64,000 nt of DNA from an uncultured Bacilli bacterium. Lineage in GTDB: Bacteria > Bacillota_I > Bacilli_A > RF39 > UBA660. Below the pieces are notes generated by a model. The model had not been told where the DNA came from, did not search any database, and saw only the letters and a list, made by a program, of their open reading frames with translations. Location: positions 31,377 to 95,376 of the forward strand of contig CAKOHW010000002.1 in NCBI GenBank assembly GCA_934086185.1. Direction: 5' to 3'. The position numbers were made by a program, and so were the translations under genes. How positions within the stretch are numbered: the first letter of the stretch is position 1; each line of letters begins with the position of its first letter. Below are positions 18,336-54,758 of the stretch, piece by piece.

Positions 18336-18358
18336 AAAGCCATAAAAGGCTTTTTTAA
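18334..18358. terminator. bidirectional terminator between the ATPase gene and paralog P1
   Basis: AAAAAGCC-ATAAAA-GGCTTTTTT between convergent genes. Confidence 0.6.
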
Positions 18359-20244
18359 TTTTCTAAAATTTTATACGGATTATCTATTGTTCCATCTCCA
18401 CTCAATAATTGTGAACCAGTAGCTAAAGTAATTGAAGGACGAACAGTTGCAAAAGTTTCTTTAGATTCAAGAGCAAGTAAACTATTATCTATATTTACAT
18501 AAGCAACACTATCACTATATCCATCGAAGAAAAATGAACGAGACAAAGTCCAATATATAGTTTGTGAGTTAGTATATAAATAATTTCCTCTACATGCATT
18601 ATATACTTCGAATGCAATATTTCCAGCATATATAATTTCATCCGCTGTTAATGTTCCTATATAATCACTTACACTATCTTCTTCACTTGAACATTTAAAC
18701 GTAGCAGTTTTATCTCCACCTACACCCATCATTCTTTTTCCTACCAAATAAAGATATCCACTTTTATTATTTTCTAATGTTAATGCTTCATCTGTTGTTA
18801 ATAATGCACCTGTATCATTACTATATTTATAACCATCACTGCCTCCCAAACACCACTTTTCATTTTTTAAATATAATTTCTTATCTTCTAATCCACTTGA
18901 TATATACCATGTTTTTAATGTTGTATATAATCCTCCACTATAATTTTCATAATCAGCATAATATTTGCTATTAATTGTTTTATAACCATATGCTATTTTT
19001 GCCCCATTATTTATTAAAGCAGATGTTGTATCTGATGATGTTATTGTACTACATAACCCCTCTTTTGCTAAGATTATTTTTATACTTCCATCACCTTCTA
19101 CACGTACAACTCTCCAACACATATTATTAAATTCTATATAATTATCTTTTACTCCACCCCTATAATAATAACTATAACCATAATCATCTTCTGCCATAGA
19201 TAATGTTGATTCTGTCGGATATGATACTGCTAACATTTTTTTGATTTTTATTGATACTGAACTTGTACTGCTTACTGGAGCTTCCGTTACTTTATATATA
19301 TTTTCTAAATCCGTCGTTGTTTTTTTAGTATCTGTACTTGATGAATTATTATATACATAATTATCTACTAAATATTTTCCAATTAATGTTTTATTACATG
19401 TTCCGTCATTATACTTGCATGTAGAAACTCCTGTTAATGTGAATTTACCAGTACTTTCATCAACTTTATACCCAGTTCCATATGTCCAATAGTAACCCTG
19501 ATATGTTGTTGAGACATTATATATTAATCTTTCATCTATTTCTTCAGTTGCTCTATCAGTATAGTATTTATAATTAGGTATTTCTTGAGCCGGAATTGTT
19601 AACGGAGTTGCACTAAATGTTGTCCCATTATTTTCTAACTTTGCATTATTTATTATTGCATAAGCTAACGTTGTTGGTTCATATGGCATAAATTCCCCAT
19701 TAATATTCTTACTAAATATTTGTAATTTTGCTTGTAATATTTTTCCCATATCCACACTTTGATCTGTACCTGTATCTTTATATGTGAATGTAAATGTATA
19801 TGTATGTGTTTTTTTAGGCTCTATTTCATTTGTAACTAACTCTTTTATGCCGTTTGGAAAGGTTGTCTCTATTGTTACTTTGTTACATGCTATAGTTCCG
19901 TTAGTACTACAGTCTAATGTATATTTTATATCATCAGTTCTTTCAAATGTATTTACAACATCTATTAAATATAAACCATATTCTATATTTACATTTCCTT
20001 CGTTTTTTACTGTGAATGTTTTAGTATATTCAGTATTACTTGGAAATAAGTTTTCTCCACCTACTACCCCATCACTACCATCATTATATACTAATAATAA
20101 ATCTGCCGCTGTTACATCTATAGATTTATTATTAGTGTTTCCTTGTATTCTTGTTAAATAATATCCATATGTTAAACCAATAAGTGCTAAACTTACTATA
20201 GATATTCCTACAATGCTTATTATTATTTTTTGTTTTCTACTCAT
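18355..20244 (-). CDS. paralog P1: exported protein with a TasA/camelysin-like head (divergent type a) and tail type alpha
   Basis: N-terminus MSRKQKIIISIVGISIVSLALIGLTYGYYLTRIQGNTN resembles a SipW-type signal. Head motifs …KTFTVKNEGN… The C-terminal module …DDYGYSYYYRGGVKDNYIEFNNMCWRVVRVEGDGSIKIIL…YWTLS…VRPSITL… ends in GDGTIDNPYKILEN. Confidence 0.9.
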   Translation of the reverse strand: MSRKQKIIISIVGISIVSLALIGLTYGYYLTRIQGNTNNKSIDVTAADLLLVYNDGSDGVVGGENLFPSNTEYTKTFTVKNEGNVNIEYGLYLIDVVNTFERTDDIKYTLDCSTNGTIACNKVTIETTFPNGIKELVTNEIEPKKTHTYTFTFTYKDTGTDQSVDMGKILQAKLQIFSKNINGEFMPYEPTTLAYAIINNAKLENNGTTFSATPLTIPAQEIPNYKYYTDRATEEIDERLIYNVSTTYQGYYWTYGTGYKVDESTGKFTLTGVSTCKYNDGTCNKTLIGKYLVDNYVYNNSSSTDTKKTTTDLENIYKVTEAPVSSTSSVSIKIKKMLAVSYPTESTLSMAEDDYGYSYYYRGGVKDNYIEFNNMCWRVVRVEGDGSIKIILAKEGLCSTITSSDTTSALINNGAKIAYGYKTINSKYYADYENYSGGLYTTLKTWYISSGLEDKKLYLKNEKWCLGGSDGYKYSNDTGALLTTDEALTLENNKSGYLYLVGKRMMGVGGDKTATFKCSSEEDSVSDYIGTLTADEIIYAGNIAFEVYNACRGNYLYTNSQTIYWTLSRSFFFDGYSDSVAYVNIDNSLLALESKETFATVRPSITLATGSQLLSGDGTIDNPYKILEN

Positions 20245-20275
20245 ATTAACTCAAACTTCCTATCTTTATACTTAA

Positions 20276-20326
20276 AGTTTATCAAATCATTTTATTATTT
20301 ACAATATACAAATTTTGTTTTATACT
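20276..20326. promoter_or_regulatory. back-to-back divergent promoter module (P1 copy)
   Basis: Minus strand: TTGTAA(20299-20304)-17-TGaTAAACT(-10 at 20276-20281). Plus strand: TTTACA(20298-20303)-17-TATACT(20321-20326). The two -35 boxes overlap by 5 nt. Confidence 0.55.
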
Positions 20327-20332
20327 TAATTT

Positions 20333-20400
20333 AGTAGAACATCTAATTGATGGCTACCGTTTTTTTGGTAAGTGCTAATTATTTAATTAGCACTATTTTT
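20333..20400 (+). ncRNA. candidate cis-antisense sRNA (antitoxin-like), copy 1
   Basis: Starts about 7 nt after TATACT. Hairpin GTGCTAATTA/TAATTAGCAC (20372-20393) + TATTTTT acts as a plus-strand terminator. Complementary to the 3' end of the minus-strand small-ORF RNA. Confidence 0.45.
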
Positions 20401-20565
20401 ATGACCAAAACTCCCTATTATCTATATAGAAGGATGAATAGGAATACAATTACCATAATGATAATTGAACAGTCTAAAAACCTTATAATGAAAGTTTTTA
20501 CTTTCAAGCTAAGTACCTACTTTTTCTACTTTAAAAATAGAAGGTAGCCATCAAACCAAATGTTC
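20337..20565 (-). other. structured small-ORF RNA (type I toxin-like mRNA), copy 1
   Basis: Promoter TTGAAA(20596-20601)-16-TATTAT(20574-20579). The 5' arm GAACAUUUGGUUUGAUGGCUACC pairs with the 3' arm GGUAGCCAUCAAUUAGAUGUUC: about 22 bp with 3 G-U pairs, which works only in the minus-strand RNA. Confidence 0.55.
20418..20507 (-). CDS. 29-aa hydrophobic peptide (type I toxin candidate), copy 1
   Basis: TTG start sits in the hairpin UGAAAGU-AAAA-ACUUUCA. Peptide MKVKTFIIRFLDCSIIIMVIVFLFILLYR. Conserved with copy 2 through mostly synonymous or conservative changes. Confidence 0.5.
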   Translation of the reverse strand: MKVKTFIIRFLDCSIIIMVIVFLFILLYR

Positions 20566-20641
20566 AAGACACTATAATACTCATATAATTTATTATTTCA
20601 ATAATTTCGAAAAAACATTACAAAAAAAGAAATTACATAAA

Positions 20642-20818
20642 CTATAATTCCTTATCTTTATACATAATTAAACTACTAAAACAATATATTTGTTCTTCAC
20701 CAGATATTCCAATACTAACATTAAATTTAATATCAATAATATCTTTCCCTTCTATAAAAGAATTTATTGAATTTTCTAAATCACTTTCATGTCCTTCATC
20801 AAATACTTTTACTTTCAT
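20642..20818 (-). CDS. sporulation protein Cse60-like (58 aa from the internal ATG)
   Basis: MKVKVFDEGHESDLENSINSFIEG…EEQIYCFSSLIMYK matches my memory of the Cse60 family. The ORF-track TTG start at 20842 is probably an over-extension. Confidence 0.55.
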   Translation of the reverse strand: MKVKVFDEGHESDLENSINSFIEGKDIIDIKFNVSIGISGEEQIYCFSSLIMYKDKEL

Positions 20819-20858
20819 ATTATCACCAAATACATTATACAAAACATATTTGTCAAAA

Positions 20859-21743
20859 TTACTCGAATTTTAAATCTATTAAACTATTTAATATACTTGC
20901 TATAAATATTCCACCAAAACTAGATAACTGTGGTTGTATTAAATATAATAAGAAAGTAAACACCCCAACTAATATTCCATATATAATTTGTCCATTCTTA
21001 GTATAACTACTACTAACAGTATCAGTAGCAATAAAAATAAAACTAAACATAATACCATTAGTAAATAATATATTCATAATATTCCCTATATCATTTTTAA
21101 ATATAGAATATATAATAGTTAAAATAGTAAAAGATATAATTGAAAATAAAGATACATTCTTCTTATATACTTTACTACAATACAATATAATAAAACTTAT
21201 AATAAGTAATATAATATTCGTAGTAAAAATACCACCACTACCTTTACCAAATAAATAATCTATAGCATTCATATTAAAATGATTACTAACTTCATATGAA
21301 TTTAAAAATGAAAACTCATGAAATATATTCATAATAAAAAATATAATTAAACTAGCTAACGCAACTATATTAACTTTATTATTCTTTATAAATTTAGATA
21401 TAAACAATACTAAAAAAGTAACAATACTAAATAAAAATAAATTAGTATTTATACTAGATACACTTGCTATTAAAACACCATATAACATATGAAAACTACT
21501 AAATAGTATATCACTAATATTTTTATCACTCTTATTTATTTTCTCATAAATAATATTAGATAATATACCACATATTAACCCTATAATTATAAATAATAAA
21601 GGTTTAAACATACCTAATACATTAACATATCCTTTAATATATAAACTAATACCATTCTTATAAAAACCAAATAATATTAAAGGAATTAAACTAATAAAAT
21701 ATATTAAACTTATTTTCTTTATTGAATTATCACTTTTTATCAT
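20859..21743 (-). CDS. RnfD/NqrB-like polytopic membrane protein
   Basis: 294 aa, multi-TM, FIATDTVSSSYT resembles the RnfD FxATDPVT motif. Confidence 0.55.
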   Translation of the reverse strand: MIKSDNSIKKISLIYFISLIPLILFGFYKNGISLYIKGYVNVLGMFKPLLFIIIGLICGILSNIIYEKINKSDKNISDILFSSFHMLYGVLIASVSSINTNLFLFSIVTFLVLFISKFIKNNKVNIVALASLIIFFIMNIFHEFSFLNSYEVSNHFNMNAIDYLFGKGSGGIFTTNIILLIISFIILYCSKVYKKNVSLFSIISFTILTIIYSIFKNDIGNIMNILFTNGIMFSFIFIATDTVSSSYTKNGQIIYGILVGVFTFLLYLIQPQLSSFGGIFIASILNSLIDLKFE

Positions 21744-22912: not shown

Positions 22913-23542
22913 TTATTTAATTTTTAATGGTACTGAAAAATTCTCTCCATACATAAAATTAGTATTATTCTCTATTTCTTTTATTATATTATCTAACAAA
23001 CCTAATGCTTTATTAATTAATTTATTTTTTTCACTATCATCATAAAATGAATATTCTTGACTATTTATAATATTTTTAAAATCATTAACTATTATATCTA
23101 ATCTATTTTTTAAATCACTATCTCCATTAGTATCAGATACTTTAGTAATAAAATATATTTTAGAATTAATTAAACTATTCTTATCAACATCATCTATACT
23201 TTTATTAAAATATTTTAGTATAGGCATAGTAACATATAATTTAATTGTTTGTCCTTTTTTTATATTTTTAATATCATTATATTTTTTTATTACTTCTATC
23301 TCATCAAAAATTTTTTTATCATCATTTATATATACTTTAACTATATCATATAAATCATCTACACTATCTACCATAAATTCTAGTTCATATTTCTGACTAA
23401 AACTATTTAAATCTACACTTTTATATTTTAAACCAGCATTACTTTCTATAATACTATTTTTATATAAATCCCCTTTCTTTTTTTCATTCATATTAACTAA
23501 GCCAACTAACTTACTACCATCATAAATTTCATAATCTTTCAT
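22913..23542 (-). CDS. hypothetical protein downstream of P2 (209 aa from the internal ATG)
   Basis: ATG at 23540-23542 with an AGGTGA SD. The ORF-track extension to 23641 runs through the P2 terminator and the P2 3' end. Confidence 0.55.
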   Translation of the reverse strand: MKDYEIYDGSKLVGLVNMNEKKKGDLYKNSIIESNAGLKYKSVDLNSFSQKYELEFMVDSVDDLYDIVKVYINDDKKIFDEIEVIKKYNDIKNIKKGQTIKLYVTMPILKYFNKSIDDVDKNSLINSKIYFITKVSDTNGDSDLKNRLDIIVNDFKNIINSQEYSFYDDSEKNKLINKALGLLDNIIKEIENNTNFMYGENFSVPLKIK

Positions 23543-23561
23543 ATTTTCACCTACTATAATT

Positions 23562-23598
23562 TTAAAAAAAAATATACACAAAATCAAGTGTATATTTA
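23562..23598 (-). terminator. intrinsic terminator of P2
   Basis: AAAUAUACAC-loop-GUGUAUAUUU followed by U8 on the minus strand, immediately after the P2 stop. Confidence 0.8.
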
Positions 23599-23600
23599 AA

Positions 23601-24941
23601 TTAATCAGTATCAAGATAACATATTTGTGAACCATTTCCAATCAGGAATAAAATATTATTATCAAAAATCTCATTTAAAATAGTAGTATCATCCGGATAT
23701 GCCACTTTAGTACTAAGTTGATCCAAATATTCAACATCAGGTGAATATTCTCTTAACGCTATATATCCTATGTTTTCAAACATAGTAGTATGTGTATAAT
23801 AATATAACATATCATCATCAATTAAAGATAAATTTTTACTACAACTCTCTTTATAAGAAGATGTACTATTTATTTTGTTCTTCGCATCAAGTCCAGTAAG
23901 TATTTTTTGGTTACTTTTTAATTCATTAATATACTCACTTTTTAACCAATCATTTATTGTCATGTCCTTATTTATTCTAACTATATAAGGCCCTGAACAT
24001 ATACTACTATTATTTATACAATCACTTAAATGCATATCTCCCAGTGAAGCAGTAATAGGAATGTATAATTTATATTTTTTACTAAGTCCATCACTAACAC
24101 CTGATATTGTTTTTGTTATTGAATTATCTGTTACATTTATATTTATCTCTGCTATTCTACTTGTATCATCTATAGTTATTACATCATCTTCAATTGATTG
24201 TGATTCTCCTTTTTTTATAACTAAATCTGTATTTAAATTTTTAGATGTCTTTCTATTCTTTATTGTTATCTTATGTGTATCTGGTTCTATTCCAACAAAC
24301 TTATATTTTCCATCTACTATCTCACTTGTTTGTTCTTTACTATTGATTACTACATAGTCATTTTCACTAGAATTTGTTACTGTTCCTTGTATAGTAAGTG
24401 CCTTTGTATCAAATATATCTATCTTTGCTTCTAATGTTTTACCCATATCAATACTTTGGTCTACATTCATTTCTTTATATTCTACTTCTATTACATATGT
24501 CTGTACTTCTTTTGAATCAATTTGATTTTCTATTATATATGAGTTTTCATTTGGAAATGTACTTTCACTTACTCCATTACATGTTTTACCAGTTACACTA
24601 CTAGAACATGTTACAGTATATTTTATATCATCTAATCTTGTGAATGTATTTATTACATTTACTAATCCTACACTATAACTATCTACATTATTATCTCCAT
24701 TATTTGTTACGGTAAATGTTTTAGTTCCTAATGTTGTACCTGGTACTATATTTGTTCCAGTTATTACATCACTATTATCACTGTATGTTAGTTCTAGATT
24801 AGCAGTTGATATACTTATTGATTTATTATTAGTATTTCCTTGTATTCTTGTTAAATAATATCCATATGTTAAACCAATAAGTGCTAAACTTATTATACTT
24901 ATTCCTACAATACTTATTATTATTTTATTTTTTCTACTCAT
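23601..24941 (-). CDS. paralog P2: head type b plus unique tail type delta
   Basis: The first ~231 aa are near-identical to P5 and P3 (MSRKNKIIISIVGISIISLALIGLTYGYYLTRIQGNTNNKSISISTANLELTYSD…). The C-terminal ~200 aa are unrelated to the other copies. Confidence 0.9.
   Translation of the reverse strand: MSRKNKIIISIVGISIISLALIGLTYGYYLTRIQGNTNNKSISISTANLELTYSDNSDVITGTNIVPGTTLGTKTFTVTNNGDNNVDSYSVGLVNVINTFTRLDDIKYTVTCSSSVTGKTCNGVSESTFPNENSYIIENQIDSKEVQTYVIEVEYKEMNVDQSIDMGKTLEAKIDIFDTKALTIQGTVTNSSENDYVVINSKEQTSEIVDGKYKFVGIEPDTHKITIKNRKTSKNLNTDLVIKKGESQSIEDDVITIDDTSRIAEININVTDNSITKTISGVSDGLSKKYKLYIPITASLGDMHLSDCINNSSICSGPYIVRINKDMTINDWLKSEYINELKSNQKILTGLDAKNKINSTSSYKESCSKNLSLIDDDMLYYYTHTTMFENIGYIALREYSPDVEYLDQLSTKVAYPDDTTILNEIFDNNILFLIGNGSQICYLDTD
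24248..24941 (-). repeat. head-type-b DNA block (P2 copy)
   Basis: Near-identical to the 5' ~0.7 kb of P5 and P3. The spurious antisense ORFs 24398-24604 and 44086-44292 translate almost identically. Confidence 0.7.
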
Positions 24942-24961
24942 ACAAACTCTCCTTAAACATC

Positions 24962-25028
24962 AAAAAAATTATATAATTATTAGCTCCTGACAAAACTTTT
25001 GTTCAAGAGAGAATTAGGTTATATAATT
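24962..25028 (-). promoter_or_regulatory. conserved leader hairpin + U-tract (terminator/attenuator-like), P2 copy
   Basis: Minus-strand RNA AAUUAUAUAA…CUUGAACAAAAGUUUUGUCAGG…UUAUAUAAUU then U7, ending about 20 nt before the AAGGAGAG SD of P2. Confidence 0.55.
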
Positions 25029-25198
25029 CTGTGCTTTTATAAAATATTTTTTAATTTCGAGTACTTTCTACTCTATATAAACTATATCAAATTTTCTGAA
25101 TTTTGCATAGTATTTTTTATTATTTTTAAAAACGTTTGATCTAATTCATAACTATCAAATCAAATTTAACTTATTATACAATATAAAAACAGATAACA

Positions 25199-32796: not shown

Positions 32797-34719
32797 TTAA
32801 TTCTCTAAAATTTTATACGGATTTGCCTTTGTTCCATTTCCGCTTGAAATTTGTGTATTTGACTTAAAATTAATTACCGGTCTAAATGAGTAGTCATCAT
32901 TAACTCTTCCTCCACTAAATAATCCAGAACTATCAAGCAGATAAACATAATCACCACCGCTTTGATACATAGTAGGTAAGGCATCACTACGATTGCTATC
33001 AAAATCGCTAGGTGCTAAAGTCCAAAACTCTAAGTGACTTGATTTTTGATAATTATTTATTAAATAATAAGCAAGATTTTCAGTATCACCATTATCTCCA
33101 CCTGCAAAAGAAATTTCATCTGCTGTTAAAGTCCCAACATACATATTTGTATTGTCTGCAAACTTTTTCATATTTGTACCCTTACATTTTAGTGTTGGTT
33201 CTTCTGCTGTTCCTTTTCTCAAACGAGTACTAGAATCATAATAAAACCCTTCATTCGCAATTTGTTCATCTAATATTTCAACACTAGTTAATTCTTTTGA
33301 ACTACTAGAGATTAAATACGCTTTATTATTTAAACACCAGTCTCCAACCTTTAAATAAGATAAATAACTCGTTAATAATCCAATTTGAAAATTTTTAAAT
33401 GCAGTTACCATTGATTTATCATTATTTGTTTGTCCGTTTAAATAATTCATTAAATATCTTATACCTCGGTTTTTTTTACCATCAGATGCAGTTAATGTAT
33501 TTGCTGCATATTGTGTATATCCAAAATATCCAGTCTTTATAGACCCACCAGTTGTAGTTGGTATATCCCAATTTCCATCAGCCGTTTCACAAGTACTATC
33601 TTGATCTTCTAATATTAATTTAATACTTCCATCGCCAACAATACGAACCACTTTCCAACACATTCCTGCAAAATTAACATAATTATCAGTTACATTTCCT
33701 CTAAAGTAATAAGAATTACCATAGTCATCAATTGCTAAACTTAATGTTCTTTCATTTTCTCCATTTATTTCTTTTGCTGGTTTAGTTAATGGTGTTTCAC
33801 TATATATCGTTCTTCCTTCTCCACCTTTTTTAGCATTGTTTATTATTACATCTTTCAATAAAATTTTACTATCACTTATTTTTATTACATTTATTGTTAC
33901 AGTACTACCCGTTATTGTTATATCAGCATCTGCTATATTCTTTTCATCGTTGTATGTTATATTTGATCCTGATGCTGATGGTTCTCCTTTTGATACATTT
34001 AGTGTTGTTTGTTTTGTTGTTGTAGTCTTTCTATTTTTTATTGTCACTTTGTGTGTATCTGGTTCTATTCCAATAAACTTATATTTTCCATCTACTATCT
34101 CACTTGTTTGTTCTTTACTATGTATTACTACATAATCATTTTCACTAGAATTAGTTACTGTTCCTTTTATTGTTAATGATTTAGTATCAAATATATCTAT
34201 CTTCGCCTCTAATGTTTTACCCATATCAATACTTTGGTCTACATTCATTTCTCTATATTCTACTTTTATTACATATGTTTGTACTTCATCTTTATTTATT
34301 TGATTTTCTATTATATATGAGTTTTCATTTGGAAATGTACTTTCACTTACTCCATTACATGTTTTACCAGTTACACTACTAGAGCATGTTACTGTATACT
34401 TAACATCATCTAATCTTGTAAATGTATTTATTACATTTACTAATCCTACACTATAACTATCTATATCACTGCTACCACTATTTGTTACTGTAAATGTTTT
34501 TGTAGGTAAAGTTGTACCCGGCACTATATTTGTTCCAGTTATTACATCTTTATTATCGCTATATTCTAATTTTAAATCTGCTGTTGTTACACTTATTGAT
34601 TTTGTATTAGTATTACCTTGTATTCTTGTTAGGAAATATGCGTATGTTAATCCTAATAATGCTAATAATACTATTGCTATTCCTACTACGCTTACAATAA
34701 TTTTTTGCTTTTTATTCAT
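32797..34719 (-). CDS. paralog P3: head type b, shared stalk, tail type beta
   Basis: Head and stalk are near-identical to P5 through about residue 297. The tail (…NYVNFAGMCWKVVRIVGDGSIKLILEDQDSTC…) is homologous to the P6 tail. Ends GNGTKANPYKILEN. Confidence 0.9.
   Translation of the reverse strand: MNKKQKIIVSVVGIAIVLLALLGLTYAYFLTRIQGNTNTKSISVTTADLKLEYSDNKDVITGTNIVPGTTLPTKTFTVTNSGSSDIDSYSVGLVNVINTFTRLDDVKYTVTCSSSVTGKTCNGVSESTFPNENSYIIENQINKDEVQTYVIKVEYREMNVDQSIDMGKTLEAKIDIFDTKSLTIKGTVTNSSENDYVVIHSKEQTSEIVDGKYKFIGIEPDTHKVTIKNRKTTTTKQTTLNVSKGEPSASGSNITYNDEKNIADADITITGSTVTINVIKISDSKILLKDVIINNAKKGGEGRTIYSETPLTKPAKEINGENERTLSLAIDDYGNSYYFRGNVTDNYVNFAGMCWKVVRIVGDGSIKLILEDQDSTCETADGNWDIPTTTGGSIKTGYFGYTQYAANTLTASDGKKNRGIRYLMNYLNGQTNNDKSMVTAFKNFQIGLLTSYLSYLKVGDWCLNNKAYLISSSSKELTSVEILDEQIANEGFYYDSSTRLRKGTAEEPTLKCKGTNMKKFADNTNMYVGTLTADEISFAGGDNGDTENLAYYLINNYQKSSHLEFWTLAPSDFDSNRSDALPTMYQSGGDYVYLLDSSGLFSGGRVNDDYSFRPVINFKSNTQISSGNGTKANPYKILEN
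33828..34719 (-). repeat. head-b + stalk DNA block (P3 copy)
   Basis: About 0.9 kb matching 43741-44629. Antisense ORFs 33836-34135 and 43746-44045 are near-identical. Boundaries are approximate. Confidence 0.7.
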
Positions 34720-34769
34720 ATTTACATCTACTTTCTAACATTATATTTAAAGTTTATCACTATAACCTA

Positions 34770-36644: not shown

Positions 36645-36861
36645 ATTTGTACCTCTTTTCATATTTTAATATCTTTATAATTTAATTATATATAACATCT
36701 AATGATTATTAATGTCAAAAAATGTCATAACACACAAAAAAAATTATATAACTACTTCTATTAATAAATTTAAAATCAGAAAAAATAAATTATATACTAT
36801 TTACTTATCACAACATAAAATTCAAACTCATACTCATAAGAGTACTTTCTACTCTATTTAT

Positions 36862-36912
36862 ATTTTATCAAATCATTTTATTATTTACAATATTAAAATT
36901 TTGGTTTATACT
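36862..36912. promoter_or_regulatory. back-to-back divergent promoter module (P4 copy)
   Basis: Minus strand: TTGTAA(36885-36890)-17-TGaTAAAAT(-10 at 36862-36867). Plus strand: TTTACA(36884-36889)-17-TATACT(36907-36912). Confidence 0.55.
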
Positions 36913-36918
36913 TAATTT

Positions 36919-36990
36919 AGTAGAACATCTAATTGATGGCTACCTGTTTTTTTGAGATATGTGCTAATTATCTAATTAGCACATTTTTTA
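36919..36990 (+). ncRNA. candidate cis-antisense sRNA (antitoxin-like), copy 2
   Basis: Downstream of TATACT. Terminator ATGTGCTAATTA-TC-TAATTAGCACAT + T6 (36959-36990). Confidence 0.45.
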
Positions 36991-37150
36991 AACCAAAACT
37001 CCCTAAAATCTTCGTAAGAGGATATATAGAAAGATGATTAACATTATGATAATCAAACGGTCTAAAAACCTTATGATGAAAGTATTTACTTTCAAACTAA
37101 GTACCTCCTAACTATTTAAAAATAGAAGGTAGCCATCAACTTAAATGTTC
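36923..37150 (-). other. structured small-ORF RNA (type I toxin-like mRNA), copy 2
   Basis: The 5' arm GAACAUUUAAGUUGAUGGCUACC pairs with the 3' arm GGUAGCCAUCAAUUAGAUGUUC. The anti-SD UACCUUCUA pairs with the SD UAGGAGGUA (9 bp). TATTAT -10 at 37159-37164. Confidence 0.55.
37003..37095 (-). CDS. 30-aa hydrophobic peptide (type I toxin candidate), copy 2
   Basis: AGGAGG SD 8 nt before the TTG. Peptide MKVNTFIIRFLDRLIIIMLIIFLYILLRRF. Confidence 0.5.
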   Translation of the reverse strand: MKVNTFIIRFLDRLIIIMLIIFLYILLRRF

Positions 37151-37227
37151 GAGACACTATAATACACTAAAATATTAAAAAATTTGTCACATTTTGAAAA
37201 AACATAAAAAAATAATCAAATTAATGA

Positions 37228-40971: not shown

Positions 40972-41664
40972 TTACGCAACCTTCATAGTATTCTTTAACT
41001 TCTTAATAACTTTCTTCTCTATTCTAGATATATAAGACTGACTTATACCTAACATACTTGCTACTTCTTTCTGAGTATACTCTTCAGTATTATTTAATCC
41101 ATACCTCAGTTTCATAATTAATCTTTCTCTATTATTTAAAGAATTTAACTCTAATTCTAAAGCTCTTTTATCTACTTTATTTTCAAATTCTTTATAAACT
41201 ATATCTTCATCAGTACCTAATATATCTTCTAAATGCAATTCATTACCTTCAGCATCATAATTTAACGCATCTTCAAAACTAATCTCTGTCTTTCTCTTTT
41301 TATTCTTTCTTAAAGACATAAGTATCTCATTAGCAATACATCTAGAACAATAAGTAGCAAGTTTAATATTCTTATCCATCTTATATGTATTAATACCCTT
41401 AATTAATCCAATTGACCCAATACTAACCAAATCTTCTAAATTCTCACCCGTATTATCATATTTCTTAGCCAAAAAAACTACTAAACGTATATTATGTTCT
41501 ATTAACTTATTACGTGCACTAATATCTCCTTCTTTAGCCAAAGTTAAATACTTTATTTCATCTTCATTACTTAAAGGAGGAGGTAAAATATCAGTACTCC
41601 CCAAAAATAAACATATATTATCTTTCTTAAACAACTTAATAATAAACTCAATAATTTTCTTCAT
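40972..41664 (-). CDS. sigE: sporulation sigma factor SigE (pro-sigma-E)
   Basis: Pro-sequence then ILPPPLSNEDEIKYL, sigma-70 regions 2-4. Immediately follows spoIIGA. Confidence 0.9.
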   Translation of the reverse strand: MKKIIEFIIKLFKKDNICLFLGSTDILPPPLSNEDEIKYLTLAKEGDISARNKLIEHNIRLVVFLAKKYDNTGENLEDLVSIGSIGLIKGINTYKMDKNIKLATYCSRCIANEILMSLRKNKKRKTEISFEDALNYDAEGNELHLEDILGTDEDIVYKEFENKVDKRALELELNSLNNRERLIMKLRYGLNNTEEYTQKEVASMLGISQSYISRIEKKVIKKLKNTMKVA

Positions 41665-42418
41665 AACTAATCAACCTTTCATTAAGTATACAATCAATAT
41701 TTAAATTATCACTTACACCAATCAATATATTTCTATATTTTTTATTATTTACTAATATATATTCACACATAATACATTTTAATAATCCATTATTATTTAA
41801 AGAATTAAACGGAACATAAATATAATTACTATCTCTAATTCTTAAACACTTTCTATTTACTAACACAATCGGCCGCCTAAAATATGGATCAACTAATTTA
41901 TTACCAGTATCTAAAAAACCATCCAAACAAACTTCATAATTTCTAAACTTAATAACAACACTATAAATAGTATTTATCATCTTCCTATATTTAATAAACT
42001 CCAAAACATAGAAACTTATAACAACAGGACTAACTACTAAAAGAACAACAAGATTAATACTATACCCATTATTAATAAATAAAAAACCATTTACACCATA
42101 CCCAAACGTATCATTAATTAAATACAAAGACCCACCAACAATAATACTAACTACATACAAATAAAAAAGATTATATAATATTTTTTTCTTCCCAAACGTA
42201 ACATAAATCATCAAAATACTAATTATAATTTTAAATAAATTTAATACTAACATAGATATATCAAAGAATAAAATTAACAAACTCAAACTACCAATAAGTG
42301 ATCCAAGTATTATACGTACAAACTTAGTTTTTTTCTTAAGTATAAATTTAACCCCACTCAATATATAAAAATCCATAATAAAATTAATAAAAAAAACTAG
42401 GTCTACATATACCGTCAT
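41648..42418 (-). CDS. spoIIGA: sigma-E processing aspartic peptidase SpoIIGA
   Basis: MTVYVDLVFFINFIMDFYIL N-terminus, 5 TM segments, GFLDTGNKLVDP active-site motif. Internal ATG (residue 17 of the ORF-track ORF starting at 42466) is preferred. Confidence 0.85.
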   Translation of the reverse strand: MTVYVDLVFFINFIMDFYILSGVKFILKKKTKFVRIILGSLIGSLSLLILFFDISMLVLNLFKIIISILMIYVTFGKKKILYNLFYLYVVSIIVGGSLYLINDTFGYGVNGFLFINNGYSINLVVLLVVSPVVISFYVLEFIKYRKMINTIYSVVIKFRNYEVCLDGFLDTGNKLVDPYFRRPIVLVNRKCLRIRDSNYIYVPFNSLNNNGLLKCIMCEYILVNNKKYRNILIGVSDNLNIDCILNERLISYEENY

Positions 42419-42475
42419 AGTATCACCTAGTTTATTATAATTTACTAATTTTAAATATATTGTCAAATAATGTTT

Positions 42476-44641
42476 CTAACTTTCTATAATTTTGTATGGA
42501 TTTGAAATAGTACCATTGCCACTTAATAATTTAGTATTTGATAAAAGCACTATCATAGGACGAATACCTATATTATTATTGTTATAATTAGAATCATAGA
42601 TATTTAAATTAAAATTACCTTGCGAAAAAATATAATAAACTCCATCAACACCAAACTCCCCACTATAAGTTGCTCTTGATAAAGACCAATATTTTGTTTG
42701 TGCATTATCATACAAATAATAATTCATATTGTTGAAATCCATTGCACCACCTGCATAAACCATTTCATCTGCTGTTATTGTTCCTATATAATCATCTACA
42801 CTATCTTCTTTATCTGAACATTTATATGATGATTTTTTTTCTTCGCCTTTACCATTCAATCTCTTGGCGGCCATGTAATATACTGTTTGGTTTAGATCCG
42901 GGTATCCTGTAGATTTTCCATTTTCATCAAATATATAGTCAGTTTTTCCGCCTAAACACCATTTTTCATTTTTTAATAGTGATTTTTTATTTTCTAGTCC
43001 GCTTGATATATACCATGTTTTTAATGTTGAGTATAATCCTCCACTATAATTTTTATAATCAGCATATTTCTTGCTATTAACTGTTTTATAACCGTATACA
43101 ACTGTAGCGGCATTATTTATTAAAGCTGATTTGGTATCTGATGATGTTATTGTACTACACAATCCTTCTTTGGCTAAGATTATTTTTATTGAGCCGTCAC
43201 CTTCAATTCTTACAACTCTCCAACACATATTATTGAATTCTATATAATTATCTACAACTCCACCTCTATAATAATAACTTGTTCCATAATCATCTTCTGC
43301 TATTGATAATGTTGATTCTGCTGAATATGATTTTGCTGATAATTTTTTTGTTTTCATTGTTATTGAACTTGTACTACTTGCTGGTGCTGTTGTCACTTTA
43401 TATATATTTGATAAATTCGTTGTTGTTTTTATAGTATCTGTGCTTGATGAATTCGAATTTGCATAATCTGATACCAAATATTTTCCTACTAATGTTGTAT
43501 TACATGTACCATCATTATATTTACATGTTGCTACTCCCGTTAAGGTAAATTTGCCAGTACTTTCATCTATTGTATAACCTGTTCCATATGTCCAGTAATA
43601 TCTTTGATATGTTGTTGTTATACTAATTGATGTTTCTGTTGTTGCTTCATCTACTCGATCAGTATAATATTTCGAAGATGTTTGTTGTGCAGGTGTTGTT
43701 AATGGTATCATTCTAAATGTTGTTCCATTTTTTTCTTGTTTTGCATTGTTTATTATTGCATCTTTCAATAAAATTTTACTATCACTTATTTTTGTTACAT
43801 CTATTGTTACAGTACTACCTGTTATTGTTATATTAGCATCTGCTATATTTTTTTCATCATTGTATGTTATATTTGAACCGGATGCTGCTGGTTCTCCTTT
43901 TGATACATTTAGTGTTGTTTGTTTTGTTGTTGTAGTCTTTCTATTTTTTATTGTTATTTTATGTGTATCTGGTTCTATTCCAATAAACTTATATTTTCCA
44001 TCTACTATCTCACTTGTTTGTTCTTTACTATTGATTACTACATAATCATTCTCACTAGAATTTGTTACTGTTCCTTGTATAGTAAGTGCCTTTGTATCAA
44101 ATATATCTATCTTTGCTTCTAATGTTTTACCCATATCATCACTTTGGTCTACATTCATTTCTTTATATTCTACTTCTATTACATATGTCTGTACTTCATT
44201 TTTATTTATTTGATTCTCTAATATATATGAATTTTCATTTGGAAATGTTGTTTCACTTACACCGTTACATGTTTTACCAGTTACACTACTAGAGCATGTT
44301 ACTGTATATTTTATATCATCTAATCTTGTAAATGTATTTATTACATTTACTAATCCTACACTATAACTATCTACATTATTATCTCCACTATTTGTTACAG
44401 TAAATGTTTTAGTTCCTAATGTTGTACCTGGTACTATATTTGTTCCAGTTATTACGTCACTATTATCACTATATGTTAGTTCTAGATTAGCAGTTGATAT
44501 ACTTATTGATTTATTATTAGTGTTTCCTTGTATTCTTGTTAAATAGTATCCATATGTTAAACCAATAAGTGCTAAACTTATTATACTTATTCCTACAATA
44601 CTTATTATTATCTTATTTTTTCTACTCATATGTAACATCAC
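42476..44641 (-). CDS. paralog P5: chimeric copy (head type b + P3-type stalk + P1-type tail alpha)
   Basis: Residues 5-235 are near-identical to P2, and similarity to P3 continues to about residue 300. The remainder parallels P1 (…YYWTYGTGY…DESTGKFTLTGV…CWRVVRIEGDGSIKIILAKEGLCSTITSSDT…). Probable start is ATG at 44629 or 44638. Confidence 0.9.
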   Translation of the reverse strand: MMLHMSRKNKIIISIVGISIISLALIGLTYGYYLTRIQGNTNNKSISISTANLELTYSDNSDVITGTNIVPGTTLGTKTFTVTNSGDNNVDSYSVGLVNVINTFTRLDDIKYTVTCSSSVTGKTCNGVSETTFPNENSYILENQINKNEVQTYVIEVEYKEMNVDQSDDMGKTLEAKIDIFDTKALTIQGTVTNSSENDYVVINSKEQTSEIVDGKYKFIGIEPDTHKITIKNRKTTTTKQTTLNVSKGEPAASGSNITYNDEKNIADANITITGSTVTIDVTKISDSKILLKDAIINNAKQEKNGTTFRMIPLTTPAQQTSSKYYTDRVDEATTETSISITTTYQRYYWTYGTGYTIDESTGKFTLTGVATCKYNDGTCNTTLVGKYLVSDYANSNSSSTDTIKTTTNLSNIYKVTTAPASSTSSITMKTKKLSAKSYSAESTLSIAEDDYGTSYYYRGGVVDNYIEFNNMCWRVVRIEGDGSIKIILAKEGLCSTITSSDTKSALINNAATVVYGYKTVNSKKYADYKNYSGGLYSTLKTWYISSGLENKKSLLKNEKWCLGGKTDYIFDENGKSTGYPDLNQTVYYMAAKRLNGKGEEKKSSYKCSDKEDSVDDYIGTITADEMVYAGGAMDFNNMNYYLYDNAQTKYWSLSRATYSGEFGVDGVYYIFSQGNFNLNIYDSNYNNNNIGIRPMIVLLSNTKLLSGNGTISNPYKIIES
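43741..44629 (-). repeat. head-b + stalk DNA block (P5 copy)
   Basis: See the P2 and P3 copies. Boundaries are approximate. Confidence 0.7.
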
Positions 44642-44761
44642 TACTTTCCATCATAACTAGTTTATCAATTTTTTTATTCAATTTGAACAAACAACTTTAT
44701 TGTTTTTATTATAAATTACAACTTATGAATAATTTGTCAAATTAAATACTTACAAAAATAC

Positions 44762-44827
44762 AAAAAATCATATAATTATTACCCTCTGACAAAACTTTTG
44801 TTTAAGAGAGTATTAGGCTATATAATT
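44762..44827 (-). promoter_or_regulatory. conserved leader hairpin + U-tract, P5 copy
   Basis: Same element as at 24962-25028. The outer stem carries one G-U pair in the minus-strand RNA (plus-strand T to C at 44769). Confidence 0.5.
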
Positions 44828-44882
44828 CTGTACTTTTATAAAATTGTTTTTTTATTTTCAAGTACTTATCTACTTTAACTAC

Positions 44883-44933
44883 ATTATACATTAACAATTT
44901 ATTATTTACAATACTTATATTTTATTTTATAAT
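44883..44933. promoter_or_regulatory. back-to-back divergent promoter module (P5 / kinase-like ORF copy)
   Basis: Minus strand: TTGTAA(44906-44911)-17-TATAAT(44883-44888). Plus strand: TTTACA(44905-44910)-17-TATAAT(44928-44933), facing the ORF at 44961. Confidence 0.55.
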
Positions 44934-44960: not shown

Positions 44961-45677
44961 ATGTCTATAATAAAAATCAGTGAATCTTATATTAAAGAAC
45001 ATTATGACAAATTAGAAACTATAAAAAAAGAAAAACTACACAACATGGAAAGTGATTTATACGTTAATAGAAAATATATTTACAAAGTAATAGAAAGATT
45101 TTTAAGAAAATCTAAAGAAAGTAATATAAAAGAAATATATAAAATAATCTTTCCAAGTGCAATAAATATAGTTGATTTATTATACGATAATAATAATTTT
45201 ATTGGAATTACAAATTATTATTTAGAAGATTTTATAACATTAAAAAAATATATGAATAATTTAGATCTATATGAAATAAAAGAAATAATGAAAGAATTTA
45301 TATCTTTTTATAGATTTGCATTATCAAAAAAAATGTTATATTGGGATATTCATTTAAACAATGTTGGAATAAGTAATGGTAAAGTATATGTATGTGATAT
45401 AGATTCTATGGATGCAAAAGACTACAGTTGCATTGATATTAAATATACACTTAATTCTATTCTTTCTTTATTTTATGAACTATATTATAAAGAATCAATT
45501 AGATCAAATTATGATAATAGTTTAGAGTTGATAAGTGATATAAGTGAATCACCTAAATATTTATTTCATGATTTAACACTTAAAGATGTAAAAGATATTA
45601 TAGAAAGTTCTACAATAGATTATTTAGAAGAAAAAAGATTATTATTAAAAAAAGCTGAAAAAATACAAAAAGTTTAG
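44961..45677 (+). CDS. small protein-kinase-like-fold protein (K1)
   Basis: 238 aa. Catalytic-loop-like WDIHLNNVG and DFG-equivalent VCDIDS. GAGG SD. Confidence 0.6.
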   Translation: MSIIKISESYIKEHYDKLETIKKEKLHNMESDLYVNRKYIYKVIERFLRKSKESNIKEIYKIIFPSAINIVDLLYDNNNFIGITNYYLEDFITLKKYMNNLDLYEIKEIMKEFISFYRFALSKKMLYWDIHLNNVGISNGKVYVCDIDSMDAKDYSCIDIKYTLNSILSLFYELYYKESIRSNYDNSLELISDISESPKYLFHDLTLKDVKDIIESSTIDYLEEKRLLLKKAEKIQKV

Positions 45678-51635: not shown

Positions 51636-51639
51636 CGTA

Positions 51640-52482
51640 TTATTTTTCTCTATACTTTAAAATTAATTTAGAATCTATACTATTTAATAAATCATAATCA
51701 AAATAATTATCACTTAAACTATATATATTATAAATACTATCTAATAACTCAGTATTAAATCCTGCATCATTTAATTTATTTAATACATTACAAAATACTT
51801 TAGTAGAAAAATCAGGACTATATTCCTCAGTTATTAAATTCAATAACATATAAAAATAACTTAATATAGTAGTATTATTACTAGATATATGTTTATTATT
51901 ATCATCTAACGGATACTTATTAGGAAAATCCCATAACTTATCATTAAAAGTTAAATATTTAGATCTTGAAGCCTTAGCCCCACTTACATAACTACTATCT
52001 ATATCTATTACTTTAACCATATTATTTTCATTATCATATATAAAGTTTCCCTCATGTATATCTCCTAAATGAAAATCAATACGCATTAATTCATTATTAT
52101 TTTCTAAATCTCTTAATATATAACCTATCTTCTTTAAAAAATATATTTTATCTTCTAATGATACATCATTAGAATTAAATATTCTACTTAAATTATTATT
52201 ACTTTCAATCAATTCCATAGTATATGCTTTATTTCTTTTACCAAAAGAAACTAAATTTATAGGCCATACCACTTCTTTAATATCTACACTATCTTTAACA
52301 TAAAATAACTTGTTCAATATAAACATCTTATTATTTATTATTTCTTCACTATTAGAATTAAATAACTTTAATAATTTATCTTTATATAAATATAACGTAG
52401 CCTCACTATTATCAATATCACTATGTATTTTATATTCTTTTAGTTTCTTAATATCTCTACTATTTAATCTAATAATATTCAT
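51640..52482 (-). CDS. small protein-kinase-like-fold protein (K2)
   Basis: 280 aa. HLGDIHEGNFIY catalytic-loop-like motif and KVIDIDSS. Immediately downstream of P6. Confidence 0.6.
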   Translation of the reverse strand: MNIIRLNSRDIKKLKEYKIHSDIDNSEATLYLYKDKLLKLFNSNSEEIINNKMFILNKLFYVKDSVDIKEVVWPINLVSFGKRNKAYTMELIESNNNLSRIFNSNDVSLEDKIYFLKKIGYILRDLENNNELMRIDFHLGDIHEGNFIYDNENNMVKVIDIDSSYVSGAKASRSKYLTFNDKLWDFPNKYPLDDNNKHISSNNTTILSYFYMLLNLITEEYSPDFSTKVFCNVLNKLNDAGFNTELLDSIYNIYSLSDNYFDYDLLNSIDSKLILKYREK

Positions 52483-52537
52483 AACATACCCCTTTTTTAT
52501 AAAACGTATTATATATTACTAACTTTATAATGTCAAT

Positions 52538-52578
52538 TTAAAAAAATATCAAGTTAAATCGATATTTTGATATTTTTT
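52538..52578 (-). terminator. intrinsic terminator of P6
   Basis: AAAAAUAUCAA-loop-UUGAUAUUUUU followed by UUAAAUU on the minus strand. Confidence 0.65.
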
Positions 52579-52595
52579 ACTATATTTGTATATTT

Positions 52596-54758
52596 TTACG
52601 AAATTTCGTAAGGGTTACTAATGGTCCCATCTCCACCAGTAATTTGTGTACTAGATTTTAAAGAAACTGCTGGACGGAACGAAAATGCACAATCAGTATT
52701 ATTCTCAACATTAACAAAATCAACTACACCACTATGATCTACATTAATTGCAGAATCATGATTATTATTAAAGTGGTAAGGCGACAAAGACCAAAACCAT
52801 AACGAATTTGTTTTTTGATAATCATTTATTAAATAATAATCTGGATTACTATATTTAGCTTTACCACCTGCATATACTATTTCATCTGCTGTTATTGTAC
52901 CTACATACATATCAGTATTATCTGCAAATTTATTCATGTTTGTTCCATTACATTTTAATATTGGTTCTTTTGTTTTTTTACCGTTTAAACGAACATATGA
53001 ATCGTAATAAAATAATGTATTTTTAACTTGTTTATCTAGTATTTCTTGACTAGTTAATGCTGTAGTATTATCACTACTAGTAGCATACGCTTTATCATTT
53101 AAACACCAATCACCTGCTTTTAATTTATCTAAATAATTTGCTAAAGGGCCTGTTTGGAAATTCTTAAATGCATATGCCATTGATCTGTCATCATATGATG
53201 GAATAAATGCACCACCATTTAAATAGTTCATTAAATATCTTGTACTTGAATTTTTTGTCCCATCAGAAGCAATTAATGTTTTTGCATCATGTTGAATATA
53301 TCCAAAATAGCCTTTTTTTAAAGATCCTCCAGTTAAAATAGGAATATTCCAATTTCCATCACTTGTTACACAAGTACTGTCTTGATCTTCCAATATTAAT
53401 TTTACGCTTCCATCACCTTCTATACGTACTATTCTCCAACACATTCCTGCGAAGTTTACATAATTATCTATTACATTTCCTCTATAATAATAACTAGTTC
53501 CGTAATCATCATTAGAAATCGATAATGAAGACTCATATTCTTTTTTTTCAACATCTACAATTGCTACTTTTGTACTTTTGCATGATTTAACATACCAAGT
53601 TTGAGGAACAACAGGATAAGATATATATTTTCCTACTATTGTATTACTACACTCAGATACAAAACTACCATCAGATGAAGTCATCCAAGGTCTTGCATCA
53701 TTTTCTGTTGAACCATAATACCATTCTGATTGTGTACTCATATCGAGTTCTTGTTCTTCAAATTTACCACTATCTCTTGTATAACTTATTTCTTCTGCAA
53801 CTTTTGTTTTTGGAGTATTTAAAAATTCTGTACCATTTGCATTTGTTTTTGCACTTGTGTATATTGCACTTGCAAGTGTTCCTTCATCAAATGGATTATA
53901 ATCTTTTGTTTCACCAATATCTATTGTTAATGTTGAAGCAATTGATTTTATATCAACATTAACTGTTTGTGAATCGTTTGTTACTGTTATATTTGTTCCA
54001 TTTACACTTGCTGTATTTCCTTTTTTGATTGTTATCTCTTTACTTCCTTTTACAGTTCCTTCCTTATCTTTTACATATAGTGTATGTGTTCCTGGTTCTA
54101 CTGCTGCTATTAAATATTTATTATCTGTTGTTATCATACTTTTTCTTGGATTACTATGCATCTCTACATAATCTCCAGCACTTGCATTTGTTACTGTTCC
54201 AGTTACATCTACAATATCTTGTAAATTATAAATCTGTACTCGTGCTGATACTTTCTTATTCATATCATCACTTTGGTCTACTCCCATTTCTTTATATGTT
54301 ACTGTTAATTTATATGTTTGTGTTTCTCCTACTTCTATTGAATTAGTTACAATTATTCCTGCTAATTTTGGAAATGTTGTCTCACTTTTACCTGTACATG
54401 ATCCATTTTCTTTACTACTTGTACAAGTTAGTGTATAAACCATATCATCAGGCCTTGTTAGTTCATTTACTAATTCTTCTAAATATACAGCATAGTTATT
54501 TACAGTTGCATTACCATTATTTGTTACTGTAAATTCTTTGTCAGTTAATGTAGTACCTGGCATAATATTATTACTTGTTATAGTACCATTACCATCTGCA
54601 TAAGTTAATTCTAAATTTGCAGTTGTTACACTGATACTCTTATCATTAGTGTTTCCTTGTATCCTTGTTAAAAAGTATGCATACGTTAATCCTAATAATG
54701 CTAATAATACTATTGTTATTCCTACTACACTAACAATTATTTTTTGTTTTTTGTTCAT
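52596..54758 (-). CDS. paralog P6: head type c, unique middle, tail type beta
   Basis: The first ~252 aa are near-identical to P4. The tail …NYVNFAGMCWRIVRIEGDGSVKLILEDQDSTC… is homologous to P3. Ends GDGTISNPYEIS. Confidence 0.9.
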   Translation of the reverse strand: MNKKQKIIVSVVGITIVLLALLGLTYAYFLTRIQGNTNDKSISVTTANLELTYADGNGTITSNNIMPGTTLTDKEFTVTNNGNATVNNYAVYLEELVNELTRPDDMVYTLTCTSSKENGSCTGKSETTFPKLAGIIVTNSIEVGETQTYKLTVTYKEMGVDQSDDMNKKVSARVQIYNLQDIVDVTGTVTNASAGDYVEMHSNPRKSMITTDNKYLIAAVEPGTHTLYVKDKEGTVKGSKEITIKKGNTASVNGTNITVTNDSQTVNVDIKSIASTLTIDIGETKDYNPFDEGTLASAIYTSAKTNANGTEFLNTPKTKVAEEISYTRDSGKFEEQELDMSTQSEWYYGSTENDARPWMTSSDGSFVSECSNTIVGKYISYPVVPQTWYVKSCKSTKVAIVDVEKKEYESSLSISNDDYGTSYYYRGNVIDNYVNFAGMCWRIVRIEGDGSVKLILEDQDSTCVTSDGNWNIPILTGGSLKKGYFGYIQHDAKTLIASDGTKNSSTRYLMNYLNGGAFIPSYDDRSMAYAFKNFQTGPLANYLDKLKAGDWCLNDKAYATSSDNTTALTSQEILDKQVKNTLFYYDSYVRLNGKKTKEPILKCNGTNMNKFADNTDMYVGTITADEIVYAGGKAKYSNPDYYLINDYQKTNSLWFWSLSPYHFNNNHDSAINVDHSGVVDFVNVENNTDCAFSFRPAVSLKSSTQITGGDGTISNPYEIS
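54002..54758 (-). repeat. head-type-c DNA block (P6 copy)
   Basis: See the P4 copy. Confidence 0.7.

Follow-up and report, generated by a model that had tools for sequence, protein, structure and literature searches.

TasA-type proteins are small single-domain subunits of biofilm fibres, and their genes are located beside a gene for the SipW peptidase. TasA fibres assemble via donor-strand exchange (PMC9674648). In BsaA of Clostridium perfringens, residues 28-38 lack order in models of the monomer and become inserted in the following subunit, and an isopeptide bond connects N35 and K74, with E56 as the catalytic residue (PMC11580942). The secretion of C. perfringens BsaC, and probably of BsaA oligomers too, is efficient only with type IV pilus genes (PMC11580942). 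Here, we describe six related genes, p1-p6 (numbered by rising coordinate), on the minus strand of a 64,000-nt stretch of contig CAKOHW010000002.1 from an uncultured Bacilli bacterium (assembly GCA_934086185.1, positions 31,377 to 95,376); this full stretch is called the window below. Each gene encodes a protein with a common N-terminal head and one of several tails. We give about an even chance to the reading that p1-p6 are secreted modular fibre or adhesin subunits docking through a conserved N-terminal donor strand.

Organization and Distribution of the Gene Family

An earlier note on this DNA reported six minus-strand open reading frames (ORFs); all of them are present, and the observation of six related genes is confirmed. 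The common N-terminus consists of methionine, a K/R-rich stretch, a hydrophobic segment, and GLTY(A/G)Y(F/Y)LTRIQGNTN, and it is followed by a head of ~180 aa and then by differing tails. A six-frame scan of the 64 kb located the motifs LTY[AG]Y[FY] and TRIQGN exactly six times, all within p1-p6; the LGLTY(A/G)Y(F/Y)LTRIQGNTN-type start described in the note is found in 6 of 6 ORFs and nowhere else. The pairwise identity of the six heads (residues 1-178) is 48-96%; therefore, their similarity reflects homology and not chance.

The p1 protein (18355-20244, 629 aa) is composed of the head (19711-20244), an insert domain, and a tail of the type called MCWR here, subtype A (18358-19224), without an immunoglobulin (Ig)-like module. 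The p2 protein (23601-24941, 446 aa) has the head, Ig-like modules, and a unique 156-aa tail (23604-24071). It is a real gene, because 76%-identical proteins of similar length (P0003 and P0004, 446 and 439 aa) are encoded on contigs of 66 and 34 kb. In p3 (32797-34719, 640 aa), the signal (34639-34719) and the conserved N-terminal segment (34579-34638) precede the head sandwich (34186-34578), Ig-like modules (33871-34185), and an MCWR tail of subtype B (32800-33765). Positioned 50 nt upstream of p3, p4 (34770-36644, 624 aa; a longer ATG start is at 36662) combines the head and Ig-like modules with an NlpC/P60-like tail (34773-35774). The p5 protein (42476-44629, 717 aa; alternative starts at 44638 and 44641) contains the head, an Ig region, and an MCWR tail of subtype A (42479-43330), and p6 (52596-54758, 720 aa) contains the head, Ig-like modules, an insert, and an MCWR tail of subtype B (52599-53546). 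The earlier note placed an Ig module after every head. This module is absent from p1; in the other proteins it is present and shows a weak likeness to CarboxypepD_reg/fn3_3 (E 2e-4 to 0.14).

At E ≤ 1e-3, a profile of the head matches 3,779 clusters (50% identity); at E ≤ 1e-30, the number is 454. The top matches are mostly 500-790 aa long. In species-representative genomes, 153 matches to the head family were found. The best 80 of these 153 come from 12 gut metagenome-assembled genomes (MAGs) labelled Bacilli or Tenericutes (Hadza humans, goat, rabbit) plus UMGS1124; among the same 80, four MAGs give 9-17 loci each, and some of the loci are tandem arrays. Within these assemblies, uncultured gut Bacilli of low GC content were the only carriers found. 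The related loci bear L numbers (for example, L001), and the neighbourhood searches covered 79 loci with 1.34 Mb and ~100 family genes. A Hadza contig shows synteny at the place following greA. Clustering of the neighbours in the related loci gave only syntenic housekeeping genes (sigE, ABC ATPase) and no conserved accessory gene.

Signal Peptide and Head Domain

The earlier note likened the N-terminus to a SipW-cognate signal, and the profile comparison bears this out. The alignment of the head profile with full-length TasA by hhalign (E 3.3e-5, Prob 72%, 79 columns) places GLTYA|YF on GGGTWA|AF, where SipW is known to cleave TasA; TIGR04088 itself is not matched. The TasA query sequence was checked against PDB 8aur, where the mature chain begins at A28. 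Once the signal peptide is left out, the values drop to Prob 18% and E 1.3e-3, and the register is still correct (PG...TK.F...N.G). Read from the sequence, the predicted cleavage point follows T-Y-A/G at residue 27, with T at position -3 and A or G at -1.

The segment of 20-25 residues that follows is the most conserved part of the head region analysed. The positions without variation in 134 cluster representatives are T25, G35, N36, S41, L49, Y53, P67, K74, F76, C112, C121, Q162, and M166; D55 is conserved in 92%. Within the head region 20-180, conservation is highest in the stretch 28-55 (consensus YFLTRIxGNTNxKSISVTTAxLxLxYxD). Despite this strong conservation, residues 32-46 have a predicted local distance difference test (pLDDT) value below 50 in the AlphaFold2 (AF2) monomer model. 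By analogy with BsaA, a conserved stretch that is disordered in the monomer may be the signature of a donor strand. The residues N36, D55, and K74 are suggestive of the N35-E56-K74 triad of BsaA; the two sets are close in numbering, and the acid here is Asp, not Glu.

In the AF2 model of p3 residues 1-283 (pLDDT 89), a beta-sandwich head (residues 49-177) is followed by two small beta modules. Members of the family match PF12389 Peptidase_M73: 35 of the 121 head homologues do so at E ≤ 0.1, and three of the 121 (P0026, P0040, and P0060) reach 25-27 bits, above the gathering score of 22.5 bits. The highest value, 36.9 bits (E 4.3e-9), belongs to L010 6082-7038, a family member of 316 aa encoded in a related MAG, which has the same TFTVTN.G ... 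C...C ... DQSVDM head. These matches end at about position 100 of the 196 positions of the model. In NCBIfam, weak matches to TasA, the BsaA family, and exp_by_SipW_III occur among the family. A Foldseek search with the head model ranked the TasA-like archaeal bundling pilin 7ueg_A 41st (prob 0.96, TMt 0.37). Judging from these alignments, the signal and the first strands of the head are of the TasA/camelysin type. The remaining sandwich may be distantly related to TasA, camelysin, and BsaA, but it is too divergent for a firm placement.

Proteins of ~178 aa consisting of the head only were considered as separate major subunits and rejected. In L001, three short ORFs come after the 178-aa ORF, which for that reason is more likely to be a full-length gene with a frameshift.

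Tail Domains

Four unrelated tail types were distinguished in the earlier note; there are instead three unrelated classes, namely MCWR (p1, p3, p5, p6), NlpC/P60-like (p4), and the unique tail of p2, which has no Pfam match. The tails of p1/p5 and p3/p6 are subtypes A and B of one ~300-aa domain and are ~36-41% identical. The DDYG...MCW...GTxTADE pattern that the note ascribed to two tail types was indeed observed, as DDYG..YY[YF]RG..DNY / MCW[RK] / GT[LI]TADE, in four of the six ORFs by the six-frame scan. The MCWR tail has four conserved cysteines and a helical insert, and ends with G-x-G-T-x-x-N-P-Y-x-I.

The AF2 model of the p6 tail is confident (pLDDT 95, predicted template modelling score (pTM) 0.93). 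A Foldseek search of the PDB found no fold match for it (best E 0.89, prob 0.03) and no C-type lectin. Among viral models (BFVD), the top match is an unnamed 1,436-aa protein (E 2.6e-4), and a DUF6273 phage protein ranks third. The MCWR tail resembles DUF6273 in its motif pattern, with W-R-(I/V)-(V/L)...D-G..(K)L(I)L, W.LS, and, close to the end, RP. The suggestion that the tails are DUF6273-like is weakly supported: PF19789 is matched by 4 of 62 tail homologues and the domain appears at BFVD rank 3, but none of the window tails themselves matches at E ≤ 1. DUF6273 has been described as a C-type-lectin-like domain of phage receptor-binding proteins (PMC10743442). Possibly, on the basis of profiles and models, the MCWR tail is a remote DUF6273/lectin-like binding domain. 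The p4 tail scores 17.9 bits against NLPC_P60 (PF00877; E 0.003), below the gathering score of 23 bits, and contains the motifs DCSSF and ITHAS; two of its three homologues have pilin-like N-termini.

The last 316 residues of p6 have 2,996 homologues. Among the best 118 of these, a head of the p1-p6 type is present in 43, and the N-terminus is that of a genuine type IV pilin (KGFTL[VI]E) in 10; the rest comprise ~37 proteins with other hydrophobic N-termini (TFAYQ, SYSLF) and 28 fragments or signal-less sequences. N_methyl (PF07963) is matched by 10 of the 62 tail homologues (best E 8e-9). Because identical tails sit on type IV pilin modules, the head can be regarded as a filament or display module. 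In 130 long representatives, 117 tails fall into one homology cluster. No C-terminal transmembrane segment was found in any of the 130, and an LPXTG-like motif near the end was found in one.

Type IV pilin genes adjoin head-family genes in at least 10 related loci. Pilin-like neighbours (KGFTLIE; some of 450-500 aa, with large tails) are located at L007 5135-6053, L009 9024-9407, and L011 18209-20748, and further ones at L016 11985-13472, L021 8852-9865, L023/L040/L050 ~8900-9420, L048, and L078. A prepilin-peptidase-like ORF (L053 17199-17822) lies directly upstream of one head-family gene.

Exchange of Modules between Paralogues

By percent identity, the heads form the groups {p2, p5, p3}, {p4, p6}, and {p1}, whereas the tails form {p1, p5}, {p3, p6}, {p2}, and {p4}. 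The p5 protein is a mosaic: its head is 96% identical to that of p2, its Ig region 92% to that of p3, and its tail 65% to that of p1. The p6 head is 91% identical to that of p4. The DNA self-comparison revealed corresponding blocks at 24247-24942 and 43935-44630 (95.8%), at 33768-34759 and 43681-44667 (86%), and at 35882-36928 and 53996-55026 (84.6%), the last one being a 1058-bp block that includes ~280 bp of upstream sequence. Since the head and tail groupings disagree and the shared DNA blocks are sharp, modules have been exchanged between the paralogues, and the claim that the tails are interchangeable is supported.

Proposed Function and Alternative Explanations

We infer signal cleavage, polymerisation, and ligand binding for p1-p6. 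The proteins would be exported via the Sec pathway by their TasA/SipW-type signal and cleaved after residue 27, where the sequence follows the -3/-1 rule and the TasA site aligns. As happens in TasA and BsaA, the N-terminal segment would then serve as a donor strand inserted in the head of the subunit beside it. Where their heads are compatible, paralogues may assemble into surface fibres or dock onto them, and these fibres would display differing binding or enzymatic tails, separated from the heads by none to two Ig-like spacers. Recombination between the paralogues would reshuffle heads and tails.

Several results weigh against this reading. The p1-p6 proteins have no Peptidase_M73, TIGR04088, or DUF6273 match in Pfam and NCBIfam at E ≤ 1, and neither database places them significantly in any family. 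The similarity to TasA does not extend beyond the signal and the first ~60 residues of the mature protein. With the 283-residue head model, Foldseek retrieved nothing from the PDB at E < 1e-3; generic beta-sandwiches and no TasA were among the top 50. A hidden Markov model (HMM) search of the PDB with the head profiles likewise yielded no TasA, but weak matches to archaeal pilins driven by the transmembrane segment, and chance matches. No S26/SipW-like ORF was detected by motif search in the window or the 79 related loci, and no SipW/S26, TapA-like chaperone, or anchor gene lies beside any of the ~100 family genes; the search for sipW that the note had called for thus found none in the window and these flanking regions. 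AF2 models residues 3-31 as a single helix, which also fits an uncleaved anchor. The link between DUF6273 and the tails is weak (TM score 0.32, prob 0.28, best HMM E 4e-4). Finally, a C-terminal extension of 300-450 aa per subunit might hinder TasA-like polymerisation. The TasA/camelysin-like head claimed in the note is partly supported, by the SipW-type signal, the first strands, the PF12389 matches of family members, and the predicted beta-sandwich; p1-p6 themselves remain below thresholds, and Foldseek did not retrieve TasA.

Three alternatives are ranked below the donor-strand fibre or adhesin reading. It is rather unlikely that the N-terminal helix is an uncleaved signal-anchor that stays in the membrane, with the head and the Ig stalk displaying the tails as monomers and without a fibre. 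The hydrophobic segment is long (~19 residues) and unusually conserved, including the polar positions S10 and G13, and no SipW is encoded adjacent. Other anchors are nearly absent, so a retained N-terminus would explain surface attachment. The continuous AF2 helix spans the putative cleavage site; however, AF2 routinely gives signal peptides as helices. In addition, the c-region conforms to the -3/-1 rule and lines up with the site at which TasA is proven to be cleaved, and the strongest conservation is located just past the predicted cleavage, in a stretch disordered in the monomer, which is hard to reconcile with a simple stalk.

Quite unlikely, in our estimation, is a type IV filament (pseudopilus) substrate or subunit, in which the N-terminal helix would act like the pilin alpha-1 helix and the pilus machinery would assemble or export the protein. 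This would agree with the occurrence of the same tail domain on genuine type IV pilin N-termini, the pilin genes adjoining family genes, the prepilin-peptidase-like ORF at one locus, and the orphan T2SSE ATPase gene convergent with p1. The head part of the profile gives weak matches to two type IV pilins of archaea, 6nav (E 0.026) and 8tib (E 0.16); nevertheless, the pilin matches are dominated by the transmembrane helix, and T2SSE does not recur as a neighbour in other genomes. The p1-p6 proteins lack both a G|F-T-L-x-E prepilin site and Glu at +5, N_methyl is matched by none of them, and the hydrophobic segment begins directly after basic residues, with no G/A at -1. The need of BsaC, and probably of BsaA oligomers, for type IV pilus genes (PMC11580942) also favours a filament of this kind, but a pilus requirement for crossing the wall is compatible with donor-strand subunits too. 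A polymorphic effector or toxin family, whose N-terminal trafficking region would deliver variable toxic or lytic C-termini against competitors, seems highly improbable. It would account for the conserved N-terminus, the variable C-termini, and their recombinational shuffling, as well as for the NlpC/P60-like tail of p4 and the small ORF 22913-23641 overlapping the p2 end, with similar ORFs at five loci. Yet neighbour clustering in the related loci gave no recurrent immunity-like gene downstream, no known toxin domain was detected in the window proteins or the 62 tail homologues, and the 117 clustered tails represent one large homologous domain, extracellular and with cysteines, and not a varied set of toxins. 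The compact, confident tail model and the common G-x-G-T-x-x-N-P-Y-x-I end point in the same direction.

Poly-G Leader Upstream of the Genes

An upstream module is common to p1, p2, p4, p5, and p6; like the genes, all its copies lie on the minus strand. In p6 (54834-55026), it comprises a promoter-like TTGTAA-17-TAAAAT, a small hairpin, and a three-tier hairpin with a run of ten G residues (G10, 54857-54866), and ends with a U-run. The modules of p2 (24961-25092) and p5 (44763-44923, fold z-score -4.6) are without the G run; in p2, p5, and p6 alike, a nested hairpin ends in a U-run. The 5' part of the module was found in p4 (36840-36928), inside the 1058-bp block shared with p6, and in p1 (20270-20342, E 2e-4). 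Upstream of p1 and p4 there is also a 387-bp non-coding block, 81.7% identical (20255-20635 versus 36844-37223), which extends beyond the shared promoter module and holds a GTGCTAATTA.ATAATTAGCAC hairpin.

The G10 run is the sole G/C run of at least 7 in the window. In the related loci, 40 of the 42 tracts of at least G9 have a family N-terminus downstream of them, on the same strand and no more than 330 nt away; the remaining two sit at locus ends, and none occurs elsewhere. Tracts of G10-13 were found in 35 of 89 distinct upstream regions of family genes (for example, L013 9833-9843). Folding pairs the G tract with two pyrimidine runs, and the outer stems vary in sequence with their complementarity kept (GACUUUAU/AUAAAGUC versus GGCUUUAU/AUAAAGCC, AUCAUAU/AUAUGAU, and GCAUAU/AUAUGC). 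RNAalifold on the MAFFT alignment of the leaders recovered the pyrimidine/poly-G stem only, the outer stems being misaligned. No Rfam family matches the leader, and sigma-70 consensus scans were not discriminating in this AT-rich DNA.

At p6, the window and L080 have a G10 tract and L081 has G8, with coding sequences that are 100% identical; another family member has G8 in 4 of 4 samples examined. Switching between a terminator and an antiterminator by G-tract length was considered and is not supported, as the terminator-like stem is kept from G5 to G15 in silico. The leader element is possibly an attenuator, an insulator, or a phase-variation device. A bolder proposal joins all these features: heteropolymeric fibres would form by donor-strand exchange and might be covalently locked by an Asn36-Lys74 isopeptide bond (with Asp55), they would carry payloads that also occur on pilins, either lectin-like domains of a new fold or enzymes, and hypermutable G10-13 tracts in the terminator-like leader would tune or switch the expression of single paralogues, giving a combinatorial, phase-variable adhesin repertoire. 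In this complete form, we consider the proposal unlikely.

Neighbouring Genes in the Window

The GC content of the window is 24%, and the genes surround p1-p6 with what is the core chromosome of a spore-forming Firmicute; spoIIGA-sigE, ftsA-ftsZ, mutL, valS (preceded by a T-box leader), greA, murT/gatD, rnf-like genes, and a gene for a gyrB-like topoisomerase are recognisable. The T-box leader (16634-16834, minus strand, 121.6 bits) is located ahead of an HD-domain gene and the valS operon. The p5 gene lies directly upstream of spoIIGA-sigE (41648-42466 and 40972-41664, minus strand), 10 nt before spoIIGA. In 12 related loci, a sigma-factor gene recurs as a neighbour of head-family genes, probably owing to conserved synteny. 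The T2SSE ATPase of type II/IV secretion convergent with p1 (16932-18335, plus strand, E 4.5e-126) is an orphan: no T2SSF, pilin, or prepilin-peptidase genes were found beside it in the window.

Several unannotated ORFs adjoin the six genes. The ORF 22913-23641 (minus strand; ~209 aa from MKDYEIYDG...) overlaps the end of p2, and ORFs similar to it adjoin head-family genes in five related loci (cluster 11; for example, L025 4699-5316). The ORFs 44961-45677 (plus strand) and 51640-52482 (minus strand), which flank p5 and p6, contain a protein-kinase-like H..N...(V/I)DxDS motif; they have no detectable mutual homology, and neither has a Pfam or PDB match. Upstream of p6, ORF 55362-56444 (minus strand) encodes a secreted protein of 360 aa with an internally duplicated IKPAGxGRDPEYGII.D..SELGFRKKT.ED..LIN and no Pfam match. 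A 58-aa ORF (20642-20818, minus strand; MKVKVFDEGHESDLENSINSFIEGKDIIDIKF...) is located between p1 and an rnfD-like gene; it may resemble the sporulation protein Cse60. Two more surface proteins with Listeria-Bacteroides (Flg_new) repeats are encoded at 2747-4264 and 62392-63726 (both minus strand), the latter with an HELMH zinc-protease-like motif near its C-terminal part.

Significance and Comparison with Known Systems

The combination of these heads with tails that also occur on pilins suggests that Gram-positive bacteria of the gut use fibre-forming modules of different origin interchangeably as scaffolds for display. With its confident model and no solved relative, the main tail is a good target for structural and ligand-binding work. 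Up to ~17 loci per MAG (among the best 80 of 153 matches), mosaicism, and poly-G leaders fit a variable surface repertoire, which may matter for colonisation by this uncultured lineage of the human and animal gut. Through the conserved residues N36, D55, and K74, the isopeptide mechanism of "exchange-and-lock", a recent proposal, can be tested directly in another and far larger group.

With TasA and CalY, the p1-p6 family shares the (G)xT(Y/W)A(Y/A)F c-region, the L.L and PG....K.F.v.N.G strands after it, a beta-sandwich head, and a conserved mature N-terminal segment, which is a candidate donor strand in p1-p6. However, TasA and CalY are ~200-260 aa long, whereas p1-p6 span 446-720 aa and include large C-terminal modules as well as Ig-like spacers. 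The family matches the Pfam model in its first half only, with p1-p6 below thresholds. Unlike TasA, the family has no operon of the tapA-sipW-tasA type, and its copies are dispersed in the core genome.

The modular type IV pilins of monoderm bacteria have a similar plan. Those of Streptococcus sanguinis are said to consist of a pilin module with a grafted functional module; likewise, p1-p6 join a candidate filament-forming N-terminal module to a C-terminal functional one, and tails of the p1-p6 type are found on type IV pilin N-termini in relatives. The difference is that the N-terminal module of p1-p6 is TasA-like and has no prepilin-peptidase site. As for DUF6273 (PF19789), known from surface proteins of gut Firmicutes and from phage tentaclins, its model is matched by the four MCWR-tail homologues mentioned above, whereas the window tails miss it and bear four conserved cysteines and a helical insert.

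BsaA of C. perfringens (TIGR04090; sipW-bsaA-bsaB-bsaC operon; PMC11580942, PMC7395162) is alike in its 27-residue signal, its N-terminal strand disordered in the monomer, and its association with type IV pilus genes. It differs from the p1-p6 family in that sipW and vWA partner genes are absent beside the latter and that payload domains are fused here. What is new is this fusion of probable TasA/BsaA-type fibre subunits to payload modules, in a large undescribed family.

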